A DNA stretch of 37,438 nt, taken from the NCBI GenBank assembly GCA_963822405.1, contig CAWGHH010000005.1, forward strand, positions 1-37,438, given 5' to 3'. Source of the stretch: Candidatus Uhrbacteria bacterium (lineage in GTDB: Bacteria > Patescibacteriota > Patescibacteriia > UBA9934). A program made the translations under genes and the position numbers. Position 1 is the first letter of the stretch; every line of letters starts with the position of its first letter. Shown here piece after piece: positions 2,597-37,438 of the stretch. Under the pieces are notes generated by a model. It made no database searches. It was given only the letters and a program-made list of their open reading frames with translations, and had not been told where the DNA came from.

Positions 2597-3166
2597 CTAT
2601 AGTTCGTTCACTATCACCTTCGCCGGTCTCAGTATTACGTCGCCAAACTTCCAGCCTTTAATTAGTTCTTCGAGCACTTCACCGTCGGGCTTCGACGAAT
2701 CATTCTTCGACCCGCCAGCTTCATGAAGTTTTGGATCAAATGGTTTGCCGACGGATTCGATGGCTTCGACGCCGAGACCTTTAAGAGCCTCGGTGAATTG
2801 TCGATCGATATGCTGAATGCCGGTGAACCAAGTGGCGAATTTTTTCTTGAACTCGTCGGAACACTCGGTCGTATCGGGCACGTGTTTTGTGACGTAGCCG
2901 AAGTTGTCGATCACTGGCAGAAGGTCGTCAGCCACGCCCATGCGAACTCGACGACGATCTTCTTCGCGGGTTTGTGTATTCATCTTTTGGAGATTCTCGT
3001 AGTCGGCCAAGGCACGTTTCCAACCGGAGAGATATTCTGTGCACTTCGTTTCGAGGTCTGAGGGTGTAGCGTGTAGGGTGTTGGGTGTAGAACCCTGACC
3101 GACTACGCCCTCCTCTACGACACCCGACTCCCTACTCCCTACACCCTGTTTGTCTTGTTCACTCAT
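2597..3166 (-). CDS. grpE: nucleotide exchange factor GrpE
   Basis: 189 aa with a GrpE-like core ([18 protein letters not shown]..., C-terminal [10 protein letters not shown]). Its ATG overlaps the hrcA stop (ATGA). Confidence 0.93.
3061..3146. repeat. imperfect 28-nt inverted repeat inside grpE codons ~7-35
   Basis: The left arm 3061-3088 (AGGGTGTAGCGTGTAGGGTGTTGGGTGT) matches the reverse complement of 3119-3146 at 24 of 28 positions by hand alignment. The coding strand also carries GGG-N4-GGG-N4-GGG-N4-GGG at 3123-3146. Confidence 0.7.
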
Positions 3167-6209: not shown

Positions 6210-6875
6210 ATGTCATCACCCACCAGAAGGGAAACGCTGCCCACACAGCACTTTCCCCTGCTCTTCCCCCACCCAAGCATGAGGCTTAAAGAGTTTCCTT
6301 ATCCGCAACTCGCGCCCCAGCGAAAGCAGATCAGGAGCTCAATAGTCATTGCTGTGCAAACTGGAACCGTAAGGATGGTACGTTTCGCATTCGGCTGGGC
6401 CGATGCCGAAAAAATTACTTCCTACCCAGGAATCACCATCTGCCTAGGCGATCCACTAGACAGCCTGGTACCGCAGTCTTCGACGAGAAACGTGCTGACC
6501 CTGCCCGAACCGTACGTAGCTTTCTTCGAACGGCTAAACAGCGCCCGGCCAAATCCGAACGAAGACGAGCGCGGTGTGGTGTTCGAAAGACATCTGCCAG
6601 CTGGAGTTTGGCTGGCATTCAAGCCAGCAGGCCCACAAGAAACGTACGGTGTCATGGAAATTTCTGATGGCCAAGGCGAGAACAACGTGTTCTTCTTTGC
6701 GTCAAAGGAATCCGCAGACCAAATCCTGGCCGATCACAAACAGCTCAGCCATGAGAATGTGCTCCACGCAATCGATGACAGCGCGCTCCCGGAACTGTCC
6801 AGGGAACGGCACATCGAACTGACCGGAGACCTGGCCGACTGGATCATGGTCAACGATTTCTTGTCCCGCCCTTAG
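6210..6875 (+). CDS. hypothetical protein (221 aa), GC-rich, SD-preceded
   Basis: AGGAG at 6200-6204 lies 5 nt before the ATG. The gene has its own terminator and higher GC than its flanks. I recognise no motif. Confidence 0.6.
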   Translation: MSSPTRRETLPTQHFPLLFPHPSMRLKEFPYPQLAPQRKQIRSSIVIAVQTGTVRMVRFAFGWADAEKITSYPGITICLGDPLDSLVPQSSTRNVLTLPEPYVAFFERLNSARPNPNEDERGVVFERHLPAGVWLAFKPAGPQETYGVMEISDGQGENNVFFFASKESADQILADHKQLSHENVLHAIDDSALPELSRERHIELTGDLADWIMVNDFLSRP

Positions 6876-6959: not shown

Positions 6960-7844
6960 CTACGTAAACAACTCCGCCTCAAACCCCGCCGATTTTTCGA
7001 CTGAATAATCCGCAAACAAAATCAAATATTCAAACTGATACTCGCGTCGTAAAACGTTGCCGTCGGCGAACATGAGTGCAGTAGTCATAGCGTCGGTGAG
7101 CATAGTTGTGTCGGCGACAGTCCAGACGGCGATGATATGTCGAGGGCTTTCGAGTTTGAACGGGTCGATGACGTGATGGAACCGTCCCCAGGCTCGACGA
7201 TTGCCGGCGGAACCGCAAATACTTTTATTGCCGAGCATACAAATACCGATTGCCTCATCAAGATTTTCGGGATGTTCGAGCGCAACACTAATCGCCTCCG
7301 TCCCTCGATGCCTTATGTCTCCCCCGGCGTCAACGATGTAAGACAAGAATCCTTCGCGTTCGATCAACTCACTCACGATGTCGATCAAGTAACCCTTCCC
7401 GGCTGCCCCGAAGTCGAGTGAGACGCCTTCTTGAAATACTTCCAGCGTATTCGTTGCCGGATCAAACTTCATCGCCTCGTCCCATGTTGGCGGGGTCGAC
7501 AAAGTGCCCTCGGCCAAAGAATAATGCGCGTCATAACCAGCCTCAGTCATGACTTGTCCAATAAGCGGAGTGACTCGACCATCTGTCGACCGATACACTT
7601 GCTCATACAACGCAAAAAGAGGCGCAGCGTCCGGTGGAAACGCGTACACGCCTTTTGCTTTTGCCACTTTAGAAACTAATGAGTCAGCTCGAAAACGGGA
7701 ATATGTTTTGTCGAACTCTTTTATTCGCGCGTCGATTAACGGCTTAAGGCGAGCCTCGACCAGTTCACCCTGAACCCCCTTTAATCCCCCTGGAAGGGGG
7801 AATTCAATTGTCCAATGAGTTCCGATGGCGTCGAAAACGAGCAC
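6960..7844 (-). CDS. apbE: FAD:protein FMN transferase (ApbE family)
   Basis: 294 aa with ApbE-like motifs: FGAAGKGYLID, DAGGDI and SAGNRRAWGRFHHVIDP. Confidence 0.88.
   Translation of the reverse strand: MLVFDAIGTHWTIEFPLPGGLKGVQGELVEARLKPLIDARIKEFDKTYSRFRADSLVSKVAKAKGVYAFPPDAAPLFALYEQVYRSTDGRVTPLIGQVMTEAGYDAHYSLAEGTLSTPPTWDEAMKFDPATNTLEVFQEGVSLDFGAAGKGYLIDIVSELIEREGFLSYIVDAGGDIRHRGTEAISVALEHPENLDEAIGICMLGNKSICGSAGNRRAWGRFHHVIDPFKLESPRHIIAVWTVADTTMLTDAMTTALMFADGNVLRREYQFEYLILFADYSVEKSAGFEAELFT
7764..7805. repeat. degenerate copy of the G/C-rich palindromic in-frame element (in apbE)
   Basis: TTCACCCTGAACCCCCTTTAATCCCCC-TGGAA-GGGGGA. The 5' part aligns with TCCACCCTGCCCTCCCCCCCTACCCCC of the ligA copy. 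It encodes PLPGGLKGVQGE. Confidence 0.5.
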
Positions 7845-7847
7845 AAT

Positions 7848-8387
7848 TTATGCCTTTGCCTGTGACTGGATTTTGGACAAGGCAGCGTTCAAACCAATAG
7901 TTGTCAAAGAAGAACCGGAAACACGCATTGGGTTAATGTCAGAAAGTTTCTTGCCGGTGACGAACGGACCGAATGCGTCAACGATTAAATTTTGATACTG
8001 CTGGGAAGTTCCGTTTCTTGCTTGATTCTGAATTGACGCGCCTGTGACAACATCATCTTTAACAGTAACAGTAACGCCAATTGTTTCTGGTTCCCCTTCA
8101 GTAAAATAGTTTCCAGAAGCCGAATAGGTTCCATTCTTATAAGAAAAAGTTGTCACCGGAGTTGGTGTTGGAACTGGTGTAGGAACAGGAGTTGGAGTCG
8201 GAGTTGGCGTTGGGACAGGTGTAGGCGCTGGAACTGGTGTCGGAGTTGGGGTCGGCGTGTTTATGGCGGTCGGGGTCGACGAAACTGACGGTGCGGTCTG
8301 CGCACATCCGGCGCCAATAACCACTAACGAAGCCATGACAACAGCACCAAGAGTAGCCAAATATTTATCAAAAGATGATCGAGCCAT
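7848..8387 (-). CDS. lipoprotein with Thr/Pro linker and FMN-binding domain (probable ApbE substrate)
   Basis: Signal peptide ending in a Cys (VVIGAGC), then a (TP)n linker at aa ~41-78, then an FMN_bind-like domain (YKNGTYSASG...VTVTVKDDVVTG). An SGSS-LT flavinylation-type motif sits at nt 7908-7919. Confidence 0.8.
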   Translation of the reverse strand: MARSSFDKYLATLGAVVMASLVVIGAGCAQTAPSVSSTPTAINTPTPTPTPVPAPTPVPTPTPTPTPVPTPVPTPTPVTTFSYKNGTYSASGNYFTEGEPETIGVTVTVKDDVVTGASIQNQARNGTSQQYQNLIVDAFGPFVTGKKLSDINPMRVSGSSLTTIGLNAALSKIQSQAKA

Positions 8388-9284: not shown

Positions 9285-9498
9285 AGAAAATATATCGATT
9301 TCTCAATATCCGCAGAATACTGAGTAATATATATATATACAAACGTGTCTGTGGACTAACGGTAGTATTTACAAAATCTTCAATAACGTGCTATTCTCTA
9401 ATCAACAAGAGCCCGCAACAAATCCCAGTGGGAAAGTCCACACGGACTAGCGGTCACTCTGGCCTCGCGCAAGCGGGGCGTTTTAATTACATACAAAA

Positions 9499-10761: not shown

Positions 10762-11520
10762 TTACGCCTTTTCCTGGCTATGTGTTATCCACATGCGTCT
10801 AAAAAGCCATGTCCCAAAAATTACGAGAACGATTGAAAGATATTGCGCCGGGGTAAGACCGAAATATTTTGTATCAGCGGTTCGGAGGAAGTCTAGGAAG
10901 AAACGAGAGATGCCGTACCAAAGAGAAAAAGTTGCGAGATAGATTCCTGTTGGTCGAGGTTTTCGTGACAGCCACAAAAAGAGAAGACCGAGCAATGCCC
11001 CGTCGATCGCGTGATATAGACCGAGGTCGTGTCGAACTACGCCGTCAGGATATTTCACGCCGAGAATAAAATGCGTTACGGTCCCGGGATGATCGTGAAT
11101 CAAGAAACAACCAACTCGACCAAGCGCGTAACCGAACGGCAAACCGAAAGCTAAAATGTCGGCGTATTTCCAAATATCAAGTTGTTTCTTTCGCAGATAC
11201 CAAATAACAACTAGCGCGCACGCAATGAAGCCGCCGAAGAAACTGGCTCCCCCGTGCCAGAGCATGATGATCTCGACGGGGTGCTGTAAATAAAACCCAG
11301 GACGATAAAACAGTACGTCGCCAAGCCTGCCACCAATCAAACCAGCCAGAATCAACCACGGCCCAAGATCATAAATAACTTTTGGATCCTCGCCCCTAGC
11401 CTTTGTCATGCGTGCGGCCATGTAACCACCAAGCAAAAATCCAGCAGCCACAAACATGCCCCAAACCTGAAGGGTGATCGGACCAAGCTGGATAGTGTGC
11501 CAATCAATAAAGGGGATCAT
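10762..11520 (-). CDS. lgt: prolipoprotein diacylglyceryl transferase
   Basis: A 252-aa polytopic protein with Lgt-like motifs: GGRLGDVLFY, WHGGASFFGG and GRVGCFL. Confidence 0.92.
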   Translation of the reverse strand: MIPFIDWHTIQLGPITLQVWGMFVAAGFLLGGYMAARMTKARGEDPKVIYDLGPWLILAGLIGGRLGDVLFYRPGFYLQHPVEIIMLWHGGASFFGGFIACALVVIWYLRKKQLDIWKYADILAFGLPFGYALGRVGCFLIHDHPGTVTHFILGVKYPDGVVRHDLGLYHAIDGALLGLLFLWLSRKPRPTGIYLATFSLWYGISRFFLDFLRTADTKYFGLTPAQYLSIVLVIFGTWLFRRMWITHSQEKA

Positions 11521-13259: not shown

Positions 13260-15257
13260 TTAATTCCGCCCAACCATACGCAAAAAATCTGATTCCGACA
13301 ATATCTGTACCCCGAGCTCTCTTGCCTTCTCGGCTTTGCTACCGGGATTTTCGCCAACTACAACGTAATCTGTTTTTTTACTGACGGATTCTGAAACGCC
13401 GCCGCCGAGCATGCGGACGGTATCTTTGGCTTCTTCCCGGCCGAGCTTTTCGAGGGTGCCGGTGATGACAAATGTTTTGCCGTCGAGCACGCGCTTAATT
13501 GCTTTGGCCTGTGAAACCGTGACGCCGACCTGCCTATATGCCTCGAGCATGTCTTTACCGCGTTGGCTCTGGAAGAATTCGAGAATTGACTCGGCTACTA
13601 CATCGCCAATGTCTGGAACATTTTCAAGTTCGGCTTTCGTGGTCGCCGCGAGTTTGTCGATAGATCCGAAACTTGTCGCAAGTGAGAATGCCGTCTCTTC
13701 GCCGACATGACGAATTCCAAGCGCGACGATGAACTTATTAAAATCAATTTCTTTCTTGGACTGAATTTGGTCGAATAGTTTCTTGCTCGACAGCTCGGCG
13801 AAACCTTCGACGTTCAATAAATCATCCGGCGACAAACGGAAAATATCCGGTGCGGTTTTAATTAGACCGGCCGTTAGTAATTTCTCGATAATCTTCCAAC
13901 CTAATCCGTCGATCTCAAATGCTTTCGCTGCGTGAACAAGATTCTCTTCTTCCATGGCAAAGCAACTTTTATTCGTGCAGTAGTACGCCACTTCGCCCTC
14001 TCGTCGCTCGATTGGCGATCCGCACACCGGACACTTCTCTGGAATCTCAATGATCTGTTCTTTGCCAGTTCTCATCTCCGTCAAAACTTTTACAATTTTT
14101 GGAATAATATCGCCGGCCTTCGTCAAAATAACCGTATCGCCAACTCTTACGCCAAGTCGCTCAATCTCGTCGGCGTTGTGAAGTGTCGCGTGCGTGACAG
14201 TCGTACCCGCAATGAACGTAGCGCGTACAGTAGCGACAGGTGTGAGCGAGCCAGTTCGGCCAACAAACCAATCGACAGACTCGACAGTAGTAGTTGCTTC
14301 TTCTGGTGGAAACTTGAAAGCGATAATTCCCCGCGGCGTTTTCCCAACTACACCGAGTTTCTGAAACACGTCGAGGTCATTCACTCGGACTACTACACCG
14401 TCAATCCAATAATCAAGTTTCTCACGCTGTTTCTGCATTTTCTTATAGAAGTTCTCGACGTCAGCGACAGTACGAGTCAGCTCTCCTGGCGAAGTCTTGA
14501 AACCAAGAGCATGTAGCTTTTCGACGGCTTGAGTTTGCGTTCGAGTTTGACCGTCGAGAACCTGCCACGCGAAGAAGTTCAACGGCCTGCTCGCCGTCAC
14601 CCGTGGATCTAATTGTCGAATACTGCCAGCGCTGACGTTACGCGGATTTGCAAAAGTTTCTTCGCCACGGGCAGCGCGTTCGGCGTTCATCTTTTCAAAG
14701 GCTTTACGAGGCATGTAGATTTCACCGCGGATATCCACCCTGCCCTCCCCCCCTACCCCCTCCACTGCGTGGAGGGGGAGGAGCAATGGAATTGCTTCTA
14801 TAGTCCTGATATTCAAAGTTACATCCTCACCGATTTTGCCGTCGCCTCGAGTCGCCGCCGTCATGAGTTGGCCATCGACGTAAACTAGGGACACTGCCAG
14901 ACCGTCGATTTTTAGCATTGAGTACATCTCCTGCGGTTTTCCTTCTTCAAGCTTAGTAATTCGTTTCGCCCACTCCTCAAACTCGGCAATAGTAAAAACA
15001 TCTTCCATGGACAACATGGGAGTGACGTGTTCGATTTTCGAGAACTTGTCGAGCGCAGTTCCAGCTACTCGCTGAGTTGGCGAGTCGGCGGTGATCAAGT
15101 CAGGGAACTGATCTTCTAGTAGTTTGAGCTCGTGCTTGAGTGCATCAAGAGCAGCCTCGGGAATTGAGAGCCGATCGAGGACGTGATATTCGTAACGATA
15201 TTTATTGATTGCCTCCCGGAGCTTCAAAATACGCTCGCTGGCCTCTTGCTTTGACAT
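13260..15257 (-). CDS. ligA: NAD-dependent DNA ligase LigA
   Basis: KIDG adenylation motif (LKIDGLAVS), TRGDG, a 4-Cys zinc finger (CPVCGSP...YCTNKSC), HhH and BRCT regions. Start set at ATG 15257 (MSKQEASERILKLRE). The track's 39-codon N-terminal extension does not look ligase-like. Confidence 0.96.
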   Translation of the reverse strand: MSKQEASERILKLREAINKYRYEYHVLDRLSIPEAALDALKHELKLLEDQFPDLITADSPTQRVAGTALDKFSKIEHVTPMLSMEDVFTIAEFEEWAKRITKLEEGKPQEMYSMLKIDGLAVSLVYVDGQLMTAATRGDGKIGEDVTLNIRTIEAIPLLLPLHAVEGVGGEGRVDIRGEIYMPRKAFEKMNAERAARGEETFANPRNVSAGSIRQLDPRVTASRPLNFFAWQVLDGQTRTQTQAVEKLHALGFKTSPGELTRTVADVENFYKKMQKQREKLDYWIDGVVVRVNDLDVFQKLGVVGKTPRGIIAFKFPPEEATTTVESVDWFVGRTGSLTPVATVRATFIAGTTVTHATLHNADEIERLGVRVGDTVILTKAGDIIPKIVKVLTEMRTGKEQIIEIPEKCPVCGSPIERREGEVAYYCTNKSCFAMEEENLVHAAKAFEIDGLGWKIIEKLLTAGLIKTAPDIFRLSPDDLLNVEGFAELSSKKLFDQIQSKKEIDFNKFIVALGIRHVGEETAFSLATSFGSIDKLAATTKAELENVPDIGDVVAESILEFFQSQRGKDMLEAYRQVGVTVSQAKAIKRVLDGKTFVITGTLEKLGREEAKDTVRMLGGGVSESVSKKTDYVVVGENPGSKAEKARELGVQILSESDFLRMVGRN
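14734..14784. repeat. G/C-rich palindromic element inserted in frame in ligA
   Basis: TCCACCCTGCCCTCCCCCCCTA-CCCCCTCCAC-TGC-GTGGAGGGGG-AGGAGC. The perfect 10-bp stems are 14756-14765 and 14769-14778. A near-identical copy lies at 27219-27272. Confidence 0.85.
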
Positions 15258-15849: not shown

Positions 15850-16234
15850 AATCCAAATCACCTTTGCTCGTTCCAGTGGTCCCGGTGGCCAGAACGTCAA
15901 CAAAGTCTCTTCGAAGGCCCAGCTCCGCTGGGATATTTGGGGATCTCGCGGTTACTCGACAGATGAAAAGGCTCGACTAGTCAGAGAACTAACTTCCTAT
16001 CTAACCTGGAAGAACGAAGTTGTCCTGCAGTCCGACGAAACACGCTCGCAACTCCAAAACAAAGAACGGGTCATTCGAAAATTAAATACACTTGTCGACA
16101 AAGCCCTCCTCCCCCTCAAACTCCGCGTCCCAACTAAACCAACTCGTGGTTCAAAAGAAAGAAGAATAGAAGGCAAAAAACTCAACACCCAAAAGAAAAG
16201 ACGAAGAAGTATTATTGAATATCTTTTTTTCTAG
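15830..16234 (+). CDS. arfB: alternative ribosome-rescue factor ArfB (peptidyl-tRNA hydrolase, GGQ domain)
   Basis: GGQ motif (SSGPGGQNVNKVSSK) and a basic C-terminal tail (KPTRGSKERRIEGKK). It overlaps the padR 3' end by 20 nt. Confidence 0.88.
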   Translation: MSVPTNEIQITFARSSGPGGQNVNKVSSKAQLRWDIWGSRGYSTDEKARLVRELTSYLTWKNEVVLQSDETRSQLQNKERVIRKLNTLVDKALLPLKLRVPTKPTRGSKERRIEGKKLNTQKKRRRSIIEYLFF

Positions 16235-19516: not shown

Positions 19517-21212
19517 TTACGCCTTAATATCAATTATACGATACTGCACCTCCTTTCTCCCATTCCACTCATTCTCCCCCGCTTCATAGACCACATCGAT
19601 CATATCGCCAATCTTCAAAGTGGTCAGGAGATGACCCATAGAAAAACCAACTAACTTAAACTGCGCCCCTGTTTGGTCAAGGACATTCAGCCGGACATGC
19701 GCGCCAGTTGCTCCCATTGGCATCACCTCGCGAACTTTAAGTTTTGTCGCCGCGAACATTGGCGGACGGTTCCCCTCACCAAACGGCTGACAAGCGTTCA
19801 GTGAATTAATAAGGTCGAGCGTTACTTCGACGAGCGGAACCTCAGCATCAATCAATAATTTGTCGATTGGCCCAGCTTCCCCAAAGTGAATATGCGCGAA
19901 GTCATTCATCTTCTCGCGAAAAATAGACAGGTTTTCCATTGACGGCAAAGTCAAACCACACGCCTGCGGGTGTCCGCCTTTTTTCACAAAAATATCACCG
20001 CAAGAATTCATCGCTTCGACTAGATGCAAGCCACCAAGTGATCGTCCAGAACCAACAAAATGCTCGCCAACATTTGTAAACGCAAACGCTGGCTTCCCAA
20101 ACTCGCTCACTAGCCGGCCAGCTACAAGACCGACAATTCCGGGGAGCCACGCATCAGAATGCACAACGAGTACGGGCAAGGCGCCGCCTTGCCCCTTCAC
20201 CTGCTCTTTAGCAATCTTGTACATGTCAGCAAACAGCCCCTGCCGTTCTTTATTCAGTTCTTCGAGTCTCACAACTGGCCCCATAGCTTCCTCAAAAGTC
20301 TCCGCAGACAACGCATCAAACGCAATTTTTGCACTCGCAATTCTCCCCGCCGCGTTTAGTCTAGCGACCTATCCTATAACCAACCGCCTGCGTATCAATG
20401 TCGCCCGCTTCAACACCCGCCGACGCAATAATCGCCTTGAGCCCAGGACGCCGCGTCTTCTGTAAAACTTTAAGGCCGAAAAATTCGAGCGCACGATTCT
20501 CACCCAAGAGTGGCATCACGTCAGTCACCGTCGCAACAGCCACAAGGTCAAGCATCCACTTCTCGTACCCCACCGGAATATCCGCGCCATGATTCCGTGC
20601 CTCAGCAACCAAACCACACGCGAATTTATACGCTACACCTGTTCCGCAAAGTGTCTTATTCGGGTACGTCTCCCCCGGTGCCAATGGATGCAAAATTATC
20701 GAGTGGTCAGGAAAGTGCGTTCCCATCTGGTGGTGATCACAAACTATCGAGTCGACACCCAGCTCATGCGCCCGCCCAAGCTCAAGTCCGTTCGCAATTC
20801 CGCAATCAACCGTAATCAGTAGTCGAATTCCGTCACGCGCGAACTGTTCAACATTGTGCATCGCGACACCGTAGCCATCCTTCTCACGGTCAGGCAGAAA
20901 GGCCTCGACGAGAAACTCGATCTCAAGTGCCTTACAGATATCCCGAATGGCACAATACAAAACCGTTGTCCCGGAAACGCCGTCCGCATCATAGTCACCA
21001 TGAATCACGATCTTCTCCTCATTAGCCAGCGCGTCAAATAATCGAGCTACCGCTTCCGGCATCTTTGTAAATTTATCAAACGAAAAAGTGTCGCGCTCAA
21101 AATTTGGTGCCAAAAAATTAGCCACGTTCTCCGTCGCTACTCCTCTATTCGCGAGTATCTGATGCAGCAAGGACTCCTCCGTCCTCGGCCTAATATCCCA
21201 AAGTTTTTTCAT
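19517..21212 (-). pseudogene. recJ: single-stranded-DNA exonuclease RecJ, interrupted by a 1-nt frameshift near 20366
   Basis: The N-terminal ORF (20361..21212) has the DHH domain (IHGDYDADGVSG, VDCG, CDHHQ) and ends ...AVGYRIGR-stop. The +1 frame continues ARLNAAGRIASAK into the DHHA1 ORF (GGHPQACG). Confidence 0.75.
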
Positions 21213-21213
21213 G

Positions 21214-21312
21214 TTAGAACCCCAGCGCCACCATAGACACAATCATCGAAACCAAAATCAACCCCGCAATCACTGCCCAAAACCTTTTAATTGTTTTTTC
21301 CGTGATTTTCAT
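21214..21312 (-). CDS. possible 32-aa single-pass membrane peptide
   Basis: MKITEKTIKRFWAVIAGLILVSMIVSMVALGF. Its TAA lies 1 nt from the recJ ATG. Support comes only from hydrophobicity and packing. Confidence 0.3.
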   Translation of the reverse strand: MKITEKTIKRFWAVIAGLILVSMIVSMVALGF

Positions 21313-25601: not shown

Positions 25602-25647
25602 CACCGATACCTCCCGTACGCCCAGCGCTGCGGGAGGGTTTTTATTT
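25602..25647 (+). terminator. terminator hairpin, copy 1 of a 45-nt direct repeat
   Basis: CACCGATACCTCCCGTACGCCCAGCGCTGCGGGAGGGTTTTTATTT has stem CCTCCCG/CGGGAGG followed by a T run. Confidence 0.75.
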
Positions 25648-26150: not shown

Positions 26151-26196
26151 CACCGTCACCTCCCGTACGCCTAGCGCTGCGGGAGGGTTTTGTTTA
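26151..26196 (+). terminator. terminator hairpin, copy 2 of the 45-nt direct repeat
   Basis: CACCGTCACCTCCCGTACGCCTAGCGCTGCGGGAGGGTTTTGTTTA differs from copy 1 at only a few positions. Confidence 0.75.
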
Positions 26197-27118
26197 TGCA
26201 ACTTTTCGAACATCTCTAAACGAACGCCACACAAAATATGCGATTATCAAAGTAGTGATAGTTGGGCTCACCCATTCTGGAACGTCAACGCCGAATGCCT
26301 GGGCGAGCATGACGATCCCAAGCGCGAGGACAGAATACATGGCACCATTTTTCAAAAGTGCATATTTCTTGATTCGGTCGATGTTCGACACGGTGATCCA
26401 ACGAACGACTATTGCGCCGAGTCCGTTGCCAAGGAGAATAAGTGGAACAGCGAGAGTAAAAGCAAAAGCTCCGAGTACGCCATCAATTGAAAACGTCATG
26501 TCGATAATTTCCAGATACAAAATTTTGCTCAAATCGGACATGCCATTATTACCGTGAACGAGCTGTTGCTCAGCCGACTCCGCGTTCTGCTTGAAACCGT
26601 GGGTGATGAAGAAAGCCGTTCGAGCCGACTACTGCACCAAACGCGAGCATGGGACTTTCTTTCATGGCGAACCAAACGATCGTCGTCAACAAGATCGAAA
26701 CGACGGCGTAGAACCAAACACCTTGTCGCAAAACAAATTTCTCACCGGGAAGACCGAATGTTTTCGGTTCGAGGAAAAGCCAGTGGAGAAAAAGGAACAA
26801 CAGGAACACTCCACCACCCATAAGCAAAATTGGCGAGGACGATTCGATCGCCGCTAAGACACTCGGATCATTGCTGAACGTCGCAGTTAGCGAACCAAGC
26901 AGACCTAGTGATGGCGTCGCCGCCCAAACGATGAGCCACGGTAGGGTTCCTCGAACAATAAAGACCGCAAATAAGATTCCCCAAAACAAAAACCATTTCT
27001 TAGCCTTTGCACTCATGCCACTCAACACCTCGGCGTTAATAATGGCGTTGTCGATGCTTGAAATAACCTCGAACAGAGCTAAACCGATAACGGTGAATAA
27101 GACAGAGAAAGTGAACAT
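26194..27118 (-). pseudogene. DUF475/TerC-like integral membrane protein, interrupted by a 1-nt frameshift near 26620
   Basis: The N-terminal ORF has EVISSIDNAI and ends ...GAVVGSNGFLHH... In the +1 frame the text reads TAFFITHGFKQNAESAEQQLVHGNNG and runs straight into MSDLSKILYLEIIDMTFSIDGVLGAFA of the second ORF. Confidence 0.7.
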
Positions 27119-27121
27119 AGA

Positions 27122-28237
27122 TTACGCAATGATACCCGATCCAAGCAATTCCTCGCCATCATAAAAGGCGACGAATTGACCGGGAGCGACGGCGCGCTGG
27201 GGAGCGTCGAAGGTCACCTCCACCCTCCTTGCCCTCCCCCCGACCCCCTCCACTTCGTGGAGGGGGAGGAGCGCGCATCCTGATACAGGCTGGCGGTAGC
27301 GAACGCGAGCCTGAATCTTTTTGCCGTAATAGTTTTTGAGATTGCCGGGGATGGTTTCAGAGATGTCGGTTGCGGTCAGTTCGGTGCGATACAAGGCAGG
27401 ATCCTCGTCGCCAACGGCAACAATGACCTCATTCGTTTCTGGTCGGCGTTCGACGACATACAAAGGAGTGCCGCCGCCGATTCCCAACCCTTCGCGTTGG
27501 CCGATAGTATAAAATTCAAAACCCTGATGCTGACCGATAATTTTACCGTCGGTCGTAACAATATTACCGGTGTGTGGCGTAATACGCTCGGCAAGGAAGT
27601 CCTTCATCGTCACTTGTCCGATAAAACAAATCCCCTGACTGTCTTTTTTATTGGCCACCGACAAACCAGCCTTCTCGGCAATCTTTCGGACCTCTGGTTT
27701 TTCGAGATGGCCGATTGGGAACAATGATCGAGCGATTTGCTCCTGTGTCAGCTGGCACAAAAAATAACTTTGGTCTTTATTCGCATCGACGCCAGCGAGC
27801 AAATGAGCAACGCCTTTCTCATCGACAATCTTCCGCGCATAATGTCCGGTTGCAATAAAATCACAGCCAAGTTTATCGGCCTCGCGCATAAACAAATCAA
27901 ACTTCATGTACTTGTTACAAAGTACGTCCGGGTTTGGCGTTCGGCCAGCTTTGTACTCGGTGATCATGTACTCGTAAACCAATTTACGGTACTCGTCCTC
28001 AAAATCGAATGTGAGGAACTCGATGCCCAACTGGGAGGCGACGCGCATCGCATCTCTTCGCTCATCTCGCCAATCGCATTCCTCGGTCCCCGCCCCCGCC
28101 GACCAATTCTTCATGAATCCCCCAATAACCTCATATCCCTGTTCCAATAGCAAAACGGCCGACACGGAACTGTCGACACCACCGCTCATGCCAAGTAATA
28201 CCTTGCCTTTGGCCATAGAATTTGCCATTTGTATCAT
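27122..28237 (-). CDS. mnmA: tRNA 2-thiouridine(34) synthase MnmA
   Basis: PP-loop GMSGGVDSS, plus TGHYAR and RYRQ motifs. Alternative in-frame ATGs lie at 28228 and 28216. Confidence 0.95.
   Translation of the reverse strand: MIQMANSMAKGKVLLGMSGGVDSSVSAVLLLEQGYEVIGGFMKNWSAGAGTEECDWRDERRDAMRVASQLGIEFLTFDFEDEYRKLVYEYMITEYKAGRTPNPDVLCNKYMKFDLFMREADKLGCDFIATGHYARKIVDEKGVAHLLAGVDANKDQSYFLCQLTQEQIARSLFPIGHLEKPEVRKIAEKAGLSVANKKDSQGICFIGQVTMKDFLAERITPHTGNIVTTDGKIIGQHQGFEFYTIGQREGLGIGGGTPLYVVERRPETNEVIVAVGDEDPALYRTELTATDISETIPGNLKNYYGKKIQARVRYRQPVSGCALLPLHEVEGVGGRARRVEVTFDAPQRAVAPGQFVAFYDGEELLGSGIIA
27219..27272. repeat. G/C-rich palindromic element inserted in frame in mnmA
   Basis: TCCACCCTCCTTGCCCTCCCCCCGA-CCCCCTCCAC-TTC-GTGGAGGGGG-AGGAGC. 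The 10-bp stems are 27244-27253 and 27257-27266. It is near-identical to 14734-14784. Confidence 0.85.
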
Positions 28238-35422: not shown

Positions 35423-37438
35423 TTATTTGGTGGTTACTACCCGTTTGTAGCCTCTGTAAAAGAACCGAGTTCTAAGCTTCTTAATCTTGGCCACGCGAAC
35501 CATAATGTAACGCGTCACAATCATGGACGAGAACATAGAAACAAGCACACCAATGGTCAAAGTAAGAGCAAAGCCGCGAATGAAACCAGTGCTCATTGAG
35601 TAAAGAACCATGGTAGCAATGAGAGTGGTGAAGTTACCATCACGAATAGACGGCCAAGCACGATGGAATGCTTCTTTAACTGCACTTGGCAGATCTCGAC
35701 CACTCCATAATTCTTCCTTCAAGCGTTCAAACACCAGCACGTTCGCGTCAACGGCGATACCGAAGGAGAAGACGAAACCAGCAATACCGGAAAGTGTCAT
35801 TGTTACGTGGAAGGCCTTGAAGAGAGCAAGAACGGCCACCGCGTAAAACGCGAGAGCAAAGCCAGCCATGAGTCCAGGCAAACGGTAGTAAAGAAGCATG
35901 AAGAGCGCGATCAAAACTATACCAGCTAAACCAGCCTCAACGCTCTTAGTGAGAGAAGACATGCCAAGCGCAGCGCCAATTGTCTGCTGGCTAACCACCT
36001 TAATTGGCACCGGCAATGCGCCAGCGTTCAAACGCTGAGCAGTAATTTTTGCTTCCTCAAGCGAATAGGAACCAGTAATCTGCGCGGTTCCGCCGTAGAT
36101 CGCCTCGTTCACCGTTGGTGTTGTAACCGGATTTCCATCAAGGAAGATTCCAATTACCTTACCAACATTTTCACTAGTCAACTTACCGAATAGATCAGCG
36201 CCCTCAGCGTTGAAGTCAAGCACGATATATGGCGCGCCAGTGTTCTGGTCAAAGGCCACTGAAGCGTGCTTAACATCCTTTCCAGAAAGGGCCGTGTTCT
36301 TCCATGGGTTAACTTTTACAATGTCTGAAGCCGTAGTCCACGGCATTTCAATGTGAGCCAATTCGTAAGCTTTCACCGTCTGACTCTTAGATCGATAGAT
36401 GATGTGGTATCCAAAATCTGATTCAAAAACATCAGAGATCTGTCCATTCTTAAGGGCAAATAGTGCGTCTTCAAACGGCTTGACCATCATACCTTCCTTA
36501 ACAAAGCCAAGCTCCCCGCCCTGTTCTTTGCTTCCACCGTCATCACTATTCGCCTTTGCCAGCTCTCCAAAGTTTGCCTGAGTAGCCTGATTCTTAAGAT
36601 CAGTAATTAACTTAAGCGCTTCTTCTTTAGTCCGTTCGCTAGTACAGCTCTGTGCGCCTTTATAACAAATCAAGATGTGCGCAGCGTCAGGCTCGACCAC
36701 ACTCTTTTTTGAAACGTACTTCATGATGTGAATCCGGCTTGTGCCTTCGTACAGACCATTAATAACACCCGGACGCAAACCTTTCTTAACGATCTCATCA
36801 ATAAATCCTCCGTACTCTGGATCGTCATTTGTTAAAAATCCCAAATCGCCACCATTGCCGGTAGTGACCGTAGCATTACCGCTGTCAGTAGTGATTGCTG
36901 GCGCACCTGCGCCACCCGCTGAAAGATCAATAGATTTTTCACGCGCGAGTGCCGCAAAGTCAGCGCCCTTTTTAAGAGCTAGTTCAAGAACAGCCAAGGC
37001 GTCAGCCCGTTCCGTTTTCTGAGCTGTATCAATCTGAGCCTTTTGAGCATCAGTTGTTTCAACGCTTGGATTTTCATCTGGCGTCTTAAATTCAAGCACC
37101 GGAGTTTCTCCAATGTTCTTAACTGCCTCAGCTACGTTCGTAATCCCAGGAAGATCTACAATGATGCGATATTTGTTTTCAGCAATAGTTGTCTCAACTA
37201 ACGGCTCGGAAACACCAAAGGCGTTTACTCTGCGCTCTACCACGTCGCGAACGCCGGCCAAAGCGTCAGTCCGATCACCGTCAGGAATGAGGGACATATC
37301 CGCTTCATAGACCAAATGTGCCCCACCCTTCAGGTCAAGCCCGAGGGTAAACGGCAGATCCGGTATGTACGGAAGGTGAAAGCCAACCTTTCCCTGCATG
37401 GCTTTCATGCCAGTATTCCAGGGCTGTGGGTAGCTAAA
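35423..37438 (-). CDS. secD: protein translocase subunit SecD with inserted parvulin-like domains; 5' end beyond right window edge
   Basis: LGLDLKGG, a P1-head-like region, and a TM bundle with AVDANVLVFERLKEE. The frame stays open for the 10 codons upstream of the track ATG 37408, up to the window end, and TM1 is missing, so the true start lies outside the window. Confidence 0.94.
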   Translation of the reverse strand, partial: FSYPQPWNTGMKAMQGKVGFHLPYIPDLPFTLGLDLKGGAHLVYEADMSLIPDGDRTDALAGVRDVVERRVNAFGVSEPLVETTIAENKYRIIVDLPGITNVAEAVKNIGETPVLEFKTPDENPSVETTDAQKAQIDTAQKTERADALAVLELALKKGADFAALAREKSIDLSAGGAGAPAITTDSGNATVTTGNGGDLGFLTNDDPEYGGFIDEIVKKGLRPGVINGLYEGTSRIHIMKYVSKKSVVEPDAAHILICYKGAQSCTSERTKEEALKLITDLKNQATQANFGELAKANSDDGGSKEQGGELGFVKEGMMVKPFEDALFALKNGQISDVFESDFGYHIIYRSKSQTVKAYELAHIEMPWTTASDIVKVNPWKNTALSGKDVKHASVAFDQNTGAPYIVLDFNAEGADLFGKLTSENVGKVIGIFLDGNPVTTPTVNEAIYGGTAQITGSYSLEEAKITAQRLNAGALPVPIKVVSQQTIGAALGMSSLTKSVEAGLAGIVLIALFMLLYYRLPGLMAGFALAFYAVAVLALFKAFHVTMTLSGIAGFVFSFGIAVDANVLVFERLKEELWSGRDLPSAVKEAFHRAWPSIRDGNFTTLIATMVLYSMSTGFIRGFALTLTIGVLVSMFSSMIVTRYIMVRVAKIKKLRTRFFYRGYKRVVTTK

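Follow-up and report, generated by a model that had tools for sequence, protein, structure and literature searches.

Short G/C-rich repeats with triplex-motif anatomy inside conserved genes of a Candidatus Uhrbacteria genome

The NAD-dependent DNA ligase gene (ligA) on contig CAWGHH010000005.1 of Candidatus Uhrbacteria assembly GCA_963822405.1 contains a short hairpin block that recurs, nearly identical, in the tRNA 2-thiouridine synthase gene mnmA and that has a relative in an apbE-family gene. The 37,438-nt stretch analysed is called the window below. We consider the block likely to be a short G/C-rich, non-autonomous dispersed repeat with the anatomy of a class II triplex motif, tolerated in permissive loops of the proteins that it enters. 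The case is built on the two copies in unrelated genes, on empty orthologous sites in close relatives, and on elements of the same plan in other Patescibacteria.

The ligA element and its copies

The elements of the window, numbered by family, and their host genes are as follows.

14739-14784, minus strand: family 1 element in ligA, defined by its coordinates, palindrome, translation, triplex-motif match and an extra 24 nt relative to contigs L117 and L118 of relatives
14756-14778: its hairpin (10-bp arms, 3-nt loop)
14779-14784: its 5' flank GCTCCT, common to both family 1 copies
14739-14755: its G-tract tail, read on the minus strand
13260-15257, minus strand: host gene ligA, NAD-dependent DNA ligase, 665 aa, ATG at 15257
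27219-27272, minus strand: family 1 element in mnmA (triplex-motif match at 27233-27267; an extra 39 nt relative to L117), encoding ALLPLHEVEGVGGRARRVE
27244-27266 and 27219-27243: its hairpin and G-rich tail
27122-28237, minus strand: host gene mnmA, tRNA 2-thiouridine synthase (Pfam)
7770-7803, minus strand: family 2 element in apbE (triplex-motif match at 7774-7802)
7785-7801 and 7770-7780: its hairpin TCCCCCT-TCC-AGGGGGA and tail GGGGGTTCAGG
6960-7844, minus strand: host gene of the apbE family (Pfam)

The initial annotation had described a palindromic block at 14734-14784, and the sequence found there reads ...CCTGCCCTCCCCCCCTA-CCCCCTCCAC-TGC-GTGGAGGGGG-AGGAGC on the plus strand, with the perfect palindrome CCCCCTCCAC-NNN-GTGGAGGGGG. 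On the coding (minus) strand it reads GCTCCTCCCCCTCCAC-GCA-GTGGAGGGGG-TA-GGGGGGGAGGGCAGGGTGGA and is translated as LLPLHAVEGVGGEGRV, flanked by TRGDG...IPL and RGEIY. The placement of this peptide between the TRGDG...IPL and RGE ligase motifs agrees with the translation and with the Pfam assignment, which comprises NAD-dependent ligase adenylation, OB, Zn, HhH and BRCT domains. Residues ~159-172 of LigA (LLPLHAVEGVGGEG) come from the element; the insert segment is LLPLHAVEGVGGEGR and the peptide that spans it is ...IPLLLPLHAVEGVGGEGR. The palindrome pattern appeared in 0 of 100 dinucleotide-preserving shuffles of the window, and the family 1 element is very G/C-rich compared with the window and the genome (~49% G+C).

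The mnmA copy is as close as had been claimed: positions 14739-14784 in ligA and 27227-27272 in mnmA share a block of ~46 nt with 87% ungapped identity over 46 nt and 95% over 37 nt. Orientation agrees between the two copies, as does the reading frame through LLPLH[A/E]VEGVGG; beyond it, a difference in the G-run (G7 vs G6) plus an extra A makes the peptides diverge, and both genes stay in frame. The apbE block had been called a degenerate copy. An element does exist at 7770-7803, but it represents a separate, related family, with the sequence TTCCCCCT-TCC-AGGGGGA-TTAAA-GGGGGTTCAGG, and encodes FPLPGGLKGVQ near the ApbE N-terminus. All three copies lie inside Pfam-confirmed genes, and nearly all genes of the window are on the minus strand. 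That the copies are in frame is correct, but the emphasis placed on this was too strong: in-frame status is weaker evidence than it may seem, because out-of-frame copies in essential genes would not survive and the ligA copy is free of stop codons in five of its six frames anyway. A 12-nt match in an arfB-like gene (16106-16117), considered as a remnant or target site, was rejected; LLPL is conserved there in relatives, so the match is native coding sequence.

In a HMMER alignment to solved adenylation domains, the LigA insert falls in a length-variable loop directly before the EVRGE strand. This loop is shorter by 8 residues in 1B04 and by 5 in 4UCO, and shorter still in the closest relatives, in agreement with the statement in the initial annotation that Escherichia coli LigA has a shorter loop. 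The structural mapping proposed there points the same way: in an AlphaFold2 model (51 homologues), residues ~159-172 are coil, and the pLDDT is lowered to 65 for block 161-170, with 83 and 88 for the flanks. In MnmA, the insert lies in the C-terminal barrel domain, at a loop whose length varies greatly among 120 homologues.

Inserts that are in frame and in loops might be adaptive, as flexible Gly-rich additions tuning LigA, MnmA or ApbE, with the nucleotide similarity secondary. Many Uhrbacteria have a different, helical insert of ~25 aa at the same LigA loop, which shows that this loop can host functional additions. Nevertheless, we regard an adaptive origin as very improbable. The same 37-46 nt, synonymous positions included, occur in unrelated proteins and in intergenic DNA, and the same sequence is found outside genes in other phyla. 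Moreover, the one-nucleotide difference in the G-run gives the two copies different peptides, and the closest relatives have no inserts. The nucleotide identity across unrelated contexts has already largely refuted this explanation.

Relatives, recurrence and anatomy

In an alignment of 120 LigA homologues, of which those named belong to 'Patescibacteria group' and Candidatus Uhrbacteria metagenome-assembled genomes (MAGs), the nearest relatives have no insert (P0002, 92% identical; P0004, 89%). They read IPLSIET-TGRVEVRGE and IPLLLPL-KGRIEIRGE, respectively, against IPLLLPLHAVEGVGGEGRVDIRGE in the window. At the DNA level, the 24 nt that the window ligA has in excess of L117 and L118 are in frame, as are the 39 nt at the 3' end of mnmA relative to L117 (RQPLAGCVFDGSAVTFD vs RQPVSGCALLPLHEVEGVGGRARRVEVTFD); in ApbE, L118 has a shorter, unrelated stretch in place of the element peptide. 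Family 2 occupies the MnmA loop in L133. It also stands at 7329-7361 of L117, in the intergenic spacer between pilM and the next gene, where the window site is empty: L117 has a 42-nt insertion between what in the window is GGGTTAG and TATGAAC, and the insertion provides the TGA stop codon of pilM. A further reverse case is the MnmA of L117 (P0123), with an element-like HTPPPYQGGGR at another loop that is absent from the window protein. Thus, presence and absence differ in both directions between close relatives (ligA, mnmA, the pilM spacer and P0123), which is the polymorphism that the initial annotation had suggested looking for. With the orthologous sites of the closest relatives empty, the alignments identify the family 1 inserts in ligA and mnmA as an apparent recent gain.

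The interval between ligA and gatC in L117 (13314-14715) contains a pair resembling a diversity-generating retroelement (bAvd plus reverse transcriptase), which the window does not have.

Judged by their architecture, several families of the same phenomenon recur in LigA and MnmA of Patescibacteria. The LigA loop holds CTCCCCCTT-ACG-AAGGGGGAG-TC-GGAGGGGG.... in L128, CCCCCTTCTT-ACG-AAGAAGGGGG-AA-GGGGGGAAG in L130, CTCCCCCCAT-TT-ATGGGGGGAG-TT-GGAGGGGGG in L131 and a degenerate element in L129. One MnmA loop, compared among four genes, is filled by family 1 in the window, family 3 in L134 and family 2 in L133, and is empty in L117; the proteins of the three relatives are each ~84% identical to that of the window. 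Across the 120 MnmA homologues, element-like Pro...Gly peptides are seen at at least three loops (PPPYQGGG, PLLTKEGVGGG, PLPLIEGESEG and NPSFAGGEA). The gatA gene of L128 has an element in the opposite orientation that replaces host sequence, for a net gain of 6 nt. More intragenic copies lie in a traG-like gene and in rluA of L136 and in a 1047-aa open reading frame (ORF) of L063, a Magasanikiibacteria MAG. The Uhrbacteria genome L136 also carries a two-hairpin composite of ~85 nt, nearly identical at 6730-6820 and 10935-11015 and in frame in the traG-like gene and in mnmA; its units have opposite tail orientations and its outer C-run and G-run are complementary, resembling a dimer of repetitive extragenic palindromic (REP) sequences. 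Each intragenic copy changes the length of its gene by a multiple of three and is free of stop codons.

The families share one plan, ~35-55 nt in size: a pyrimidine arm with a C-run, a loop of 2-4 nt, the complementary purine arm, a linker of 2-5 nt and a G-tract. Arms and tail core are identical within a family, and loops and linkers vary (loop GCA vs GAA and linker TA vs TC in family 1; loop ACG vs TCC and linker TC vs GTA in family 3; linker TTAAA, TAAA or CTCGA in family 2); constraint appears to act on the nucleic acid, not on the peptide. The tail mirrors the purine arm, with arm/tail pairs of ...GGAGGGGG/GGGGGAGG, ...GGGGGAG/GAGGGGG and AAGAAGGGGG/GGGGGGAAG. When IMG/VR was scanned with the family 3 stem alone, 21 loci with very varied loops were recovered (some of them redundant), and GAGGGGG followed 2-5 nt downstream in 17 of the 21, the tail being absent from the query.

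This plan corresponds to the class II triplex motif of ITxF (Holder et al. 2015), which consists of a pyrimidine block, a loop, a complementary purine block, a second loop and a third block antiparallel to the purine block (G.GC, A.AT and T.AT triads; stem of 6-15 nt, at most one mismatch, short loops). Our re-implementation of an ITxF-style class II scan (stem of at least 8, at most one mismatch, loop 1 of up to 7 nt) returned exactly three sites in the window: 14744-14779, 27233-27267 (9 triads, 1 mismatch) and 7774-7802 (8 triads, 1 mismatch). By comparison, 60 first-order Markov shuffles gave a mean of 0.017 and a maximum of 1. A further 11 G/C-rich elements were found in 177 kb of other Patescibacteria DNA, for an overall density of ~1 per 15 kb. 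The class II definition applies, but both family 1 matches use a first loop of 7 nt, against the published limit of 6 nt. The pattern of the Escherichia coli motif TM_ECO, CCCTCNCCC-N3-6-GGGNGAGGG-N3-GGGNGAGGG, has no match in the window or in any of the 163 fetched loci; the elements are thus new sequence families of the same structural class. No Rfam family fits them, the only matches being sub-threshold hits to microRNA-like hairpins.

ViennaRNA predicts a stem of 15 bp for the sense-strand RNA of the family 1 element (-39.8 and -44.4 kcal/mol, z ~ -3). For the ligA copy, a three-layer G-quadruplex, G3-N1-G3-N1-G3-N2-G3, is also predicted, with a minimum free energy of -53.6 kcal/mol when quadruplex terms are included vs -39.8 kcal/mol. 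The hairpin and quadruplex potential put forward initially is therefore predicted for this copy, but quadruplex potential is not general across the element families. Such structures could be the reason that the element is kept, whether as a triplex or G-quadruplex in the DNA of the non-template strand or as a very stable mRNA hairpin, and could act by pausing replication, transcription or translation or by raising local recombination and variation. We think this rather improbable. Besides the RNA stem and the ligA quadruplex, the conservation of stems and G-tails alongside variable loops and linkers is consistent with it, as is the reuse of the same loops in different lineages, and Holder et al. 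connect such motifs with instability of the genome and raise, as speculation, an adaptive role (PMC4666352). However, a copying machinery that recognises stems and tails would lead one to expect their conservation just as much, the essential genes of the closest relatives manage without inserts, quadruplex potential is not common to the other families, and G-runs in essential genes bring a frameshift hazard without obvious advantage. The E. coli motif BoxC, in addition, has no promoter or terminator activity and gave no in vivo triplex by dimethyl sulfate (DMS) footprinting (PMC4666352). Because purine-motif triplexes do not form in RNA (PMC4666352), any triplex would be a feature of the DNA.

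Beyond Patescibacteria, the family 1 palindrome was found at more than 116 loci of a species-representative genome set. Among the matches listed, a GGGGGAGG-type tail lies within 60 nt in ~44 of 120 occurrences, either directly or after a second small hairpin; MAGs with multiple copies include Myxococcales MAG-87, Polyangiaceae, SAR324 and Rhizomicrobium; some copies from genomes of 60-74% GC are ~94% identical to the window copies over 36-44 nt; and 45 of 46 copies in such genomes have no coding-like flanks, as judged by third-position GC (GC3), in a common frame. By this crude GC3 heuristic, the copies in 60-74% GC genomes look extragenic. Matches in Streptomyces and similar genomes have longer loops and extended stems and look like ordinary terminators. 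A metagenome scan with the lineage-specific pattern gave at least nine matches, all on soil contigs of 64-74% GC, with none from the candidate phyla radiation (CPR) among the matches listed. The concatenated element peptides, used as a query against an index of 5.8 billion proteins, gave 11 word-sharing candidates, none of them scorable, and a plasmid search gave nothing meaningful. Because the palindrome was fixed by the query and the tail is constrained, identity across phyla fits transfer and structural convergence alike.

Two observations concern these distant loci. The IMG/VR contigs L137-L163 (G+C 0.36-0.70) carry hairpin plus G-tract motifs of the family 3/family 2 type, and in the A/T-rich ones T-rich sequence often follows the motif. 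In the Rhizomicrobium MAG, family 1 copies are paired in inverted orientation, with an additional hairpin inside and complementary segments GGGGGAGGATCG/CGATCCTCCCCC (L042:1227-1374 and L093:3382-3523), giving palindromes of ~150 nt that resemble MITEs (miniature inverted-repeat transposable elements) or REPINs.

Assembly quality and other features of the window

Two conserved genes of the window contain one-nucleotide frameshifts. A +1 frameshift near 20355-20365 (GGTCGCTAGAC) divides recJ (19517-21242, minus strand) into two ORFs, and the RLNAAGR motif continues in another frame; in a tblastn search with RecJ of L117, frame -3 matched residues 1-282 and frame -1 matched residues 284-564. The split gene is either a pseudogene or the product of an assembly indel. 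In the terC/DUF475 gene (26203-27118, minus strand), a single extra A near 26620 (GGCTCGAACGGC vs GGCTCG-ACGGC in L117) shifts the frame; interruption of this gene by a 1.9-kb insert had been considered and was rejected once the single-base frameshift was found. That two conserved genes have such an indel points to indel errors in the assembly or to gene decay in progress.

These frameshifts are what might lead one to regard the elements themselves as an assembly chimera, or as segments that never reach the protein because of ribosomal skipping or removal from the mRNA. Lang and colleagues are said to have described in 2014 GC-rich hairpin elements, called byp, that are bypassed during translation in some yeast mitochondria. 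We find these possibilities hardly credible. The same architecture is seen in independent JGI, NCBI and Logan assemblies, and a typical sequencing read is longer than the 46 nt of the element. Unlike known bypass sites, the elements have no stop codon after a take-off codon; moreover, all intragenic copies are stop-free and add a multiple of three nucleotides to their genes, which translation requires and bypass does not need. For this last reason translation is favoured over bypass or excision, and the elements are probably translated rather than removed. A translational bypass element of the T4 gene 60/byp type was rejected on the same two grounds, the missing stop codon and the uniform multiples of three.

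Several further features were recorded in the window. A 41-nt direct repeat (93% identity) at 25602-25642 and 26151-26191, with a hairpin CCTCCCG...CGGGAGG followed by TTTT, stands after two plus-strand ORFs of unknown function and looks like a reused intrinsic terminator; its core recurs at L118:382-406. The grpE gene (2597-3166, minus strand) contains an 87-nt inverted repeat at 3061-3147, with 28-nt arms that are 86% complementary, in its N-terminal, probably disordered part. It is possibly a further coding palindrome, of greater length; the comparison loci yielded no second copy. An ORF at 7848-8387 (minus strand) has no Pfam match and holds a tandem repeat with 12/18-nt periodicity at 8149-8258. 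Positions 9402-9464 (plus strand) match the Rfam DUF3800-II RNA motif with 56.8 bits, above the gathering threshold. SecD (35423-37408, minus strand) has a PPIC-type peptidyl-prolyl isomerase (rotamase) domain between its P1 subdomains, as it does in L133 and L136.

Known systems, mode of spread and implications

By its block structure, the closest known class is that of the BoxC/PIT intrastrand triplex motif repeats, not that of the Rickettsia palindromic elements (RPEs) with which the ligA block had first been compared. Holder et al. described such motifs, including E. coli BoxC (also PIT or TM_ECO), as a C block followed by two G blocks, abundant and conserved in many bacteria; as single-stranded DNA they form triplexes in vitro, and none was detected in duplex DNA or in vivo. 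They are not transposon-linked, mark variable or unstable loci and are 'always intergenic' in E. coli K-12 (PMC4666352). Shared with the elements described here are the order of blocks (C-rich block, loop, G-rich block, short loop and antiparallel-matched G-rich block, a class II purine motif), a length of ~35-40 nt, conserved dispersed copies in many phyla with varying presence and absence, and the lack of a known linked transposase. The sequence families differ, however, and BoxC is intergenic, whereas the copies here lie in frame inside essential genes; the triplex of BoxC/PIT has been seen in vitro, whereas our elements are assigned to the class from sequence.

REP sequences also enter genes. 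Di Nocera et al. 2013 found short REPs contained entirely in ORFs of several species; the genes concerned often serve replication, repair or tRNA modification, and one is the DNA ligase gene of Opitutus terrae. The same authors equate Rickettsia RPE-4 and RPE-6 with CGTC REPs (PMC3733652). Like the elements here, REPs (GTAG/CGTC-tagged, 20-40 nt, mostly extragenic) are stem-loops sometimes within ORFs, their ends can supply stop codons, as the family 2 copy does for pilM in L117, and they form dimers, as in the L136 composite. Unlike REPs, our elements have no conserved GTAG/CGTC tag, their linkers being TA, TC, TT, AA, GTA or CC, and their mirror G-tract falls outside the REP definition.

The parallel with RPEs stands as a functional analogy, since the inserts are dispersed, in frame, in variable loops (in LigA and in the variable MnmA loop) and absent from the closest orthologues. 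RPE-1 is ~100-150 bp long. RPEs (Ogata et al. 2000, 2002) likewise are in-frame palindromes in conserved genes, tolerated at the protein surface and absent from relatives' orthologues, and they too comprise several families with no known transposase in a small genome with a host-dependent lifestyle. By description, the analogy ends there: our elements are 35-55 nt long and G/C-rich, encode a Pro/Gly coil, have a G-tract tail and belong to another phylum.

Among organellar repeats, yeast mitochondrial GC clusters or hairpin elements are short and G/C-rich, in an A/T-richer genome, and occasionally lie in coding sequence; they differ from the elements here in sequence and in target-site behaviour. 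A MITE was rejected, given that the clean filled/empty pair has no target-site duplication and that one stem-loop with a tail makes up the entire element. A literature search returned no report of triplex-type or gene-invading repeats in Patescibacteria, and searches for element sequence strings returned only unrelated eukaryotic primers. The initial statement that nothing of the sort had been described for this kind of genome thus holds for Patescibacteria, but palindromes in genes are documented outside Rickettsia. In-gene short palindromes are a known type of event, to which these elements add new families, a new phylum and an intragenic niche.

Several repeat families have moved, or have been copied, to new sites in this Patescibacteria lineage. 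Because the genome is almost all coding, many copies are intragenic, and the survivors are those that lengthen permissive surface loops by a multiple of three bases, where they would be translated as a Pro/Leu-rich and then Gly-rich coil (LLPLH.VEGVGG). The elements are presumably selfish or neutral and of no use to the host. Their spread would depend on the hairpin or triplex that they form on single-stranded DNA, and the copying would be done by a trans-acting enzyme or repair pathway that is not encoded beside the copies. A gene between two copies in L096, which by eye resembles a Uma2-type endonuclease, was treated as coincidence.

Several points weigh against a mobile dispersed repeat of this kind. 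No transposase, RAYT/Y1 included, was found in the 37-kb window, and all-vs-all clustering of ORFs from 47 element-bearing loci showed only abundant Ser/Thr kinases recurring nearby. No target-site duplication is visible at the clean intergenic filled/empty pair, the pilM spacer of L117. Turnover is possible at the ligA site, where 'LLPL' or 'SLPL' is retained in P0004 and P0006 and L118 has the 6-bp palindrome TCCTTT/AAAGGA; the repeated use of one loop could mean that a site occupied long ago changed its contents, and not that insertions were independent. Across 13 families, the tail fits a mirror repeat better than a direct repeat in 8, equally well in 4 and less well in 1, with a shuffle-based Fisher p of 0.06, a result that is only suggestive because the sequences are of low complexity. 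Copy counts cover the 37-kb window and the fetched loci, not a whole genome. Many comparison loci were picked for their LigA or MnmA inserts, which makes estimates of coding fraction and of orientation bias unreliable; a preference for the sense strand (10 of 13 overall) was dropped, as it vanishes (4 vs 3) without the insert-chosen loci. Finally, the frameshifts in recJ and terC make homopolymer and G-run lengths uncertain.

Some of these points would fit copies written by recombination or repair, such as short-patch gene conversion or templated repair, at sites that were element-like or already occupied. This would explain why different families reuse the same loops, including three families in one loop of MnmA proteins that are ~84% identical. 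Relatives encode LLPL...GR[IV]E at the ligA site without the core, host-like codons for LLPL and GRV[E/D] stand at the junctions in ligA, and the 3' junction GGCAGGGT(G/T)GA is common to the window and to the empty L117 site. The LLPL codons of the window, CTC CTC CCC CTC, equal the 5' end of the mnmA copy, for which codon usage gives P ~0.0016 if they were merely ancestral. The lack of a target-site duplication and the L128 gatA replacement, which nets only 6 nt, are in keeping with such a process. On the other side, the insertions in mnmA and in the L117 spacer show no obvious microhomology to the empty sites, the argument is based on one or two junctions, and the first arrival at a new site or in a new phylum is not explained. 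We judge recombination or repair improbable, retaining it as a competing sub-mechanism, and continue to favour a dispersed repeat tolerated in permissive loops.

A broader proposal, which we hold to be unlikely, is that all of these elements form one cross-phylum superfamily of structure-defined mobile DNA that spreads via the intrastrand triplex, with no element-encoded or linked transposase. If true, its members would be spread over Patescibacteria, Myxococcota, SAR324, Alphaproteobacteria, Bacteroidota and phage-like contigs, would pass from genome to genome, possibly among epibiotic CPR cells, their hosts and phages, and in CPR genomes would home repeatedly to the same small set of protein loops. 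Such a superfamily would amount to a mechanistically new class of gene-invading repeat that drives the evolution of loops in essential proteins.

The elements join two literatures, in that the BoxC/PIT architecture, intergenic in E. coli, here behaves like an RPE in essential genes. CPR genomes, with their little intergenic space, show where such repeats are tolerated and are a source of filled/empty pairs for studying the insertion mechanism. The inserts inflate the apparent protein divergence and loop length of CPR orthologues and place slippage-prone G-runs inside essential genes, and they could serve as strain markers.

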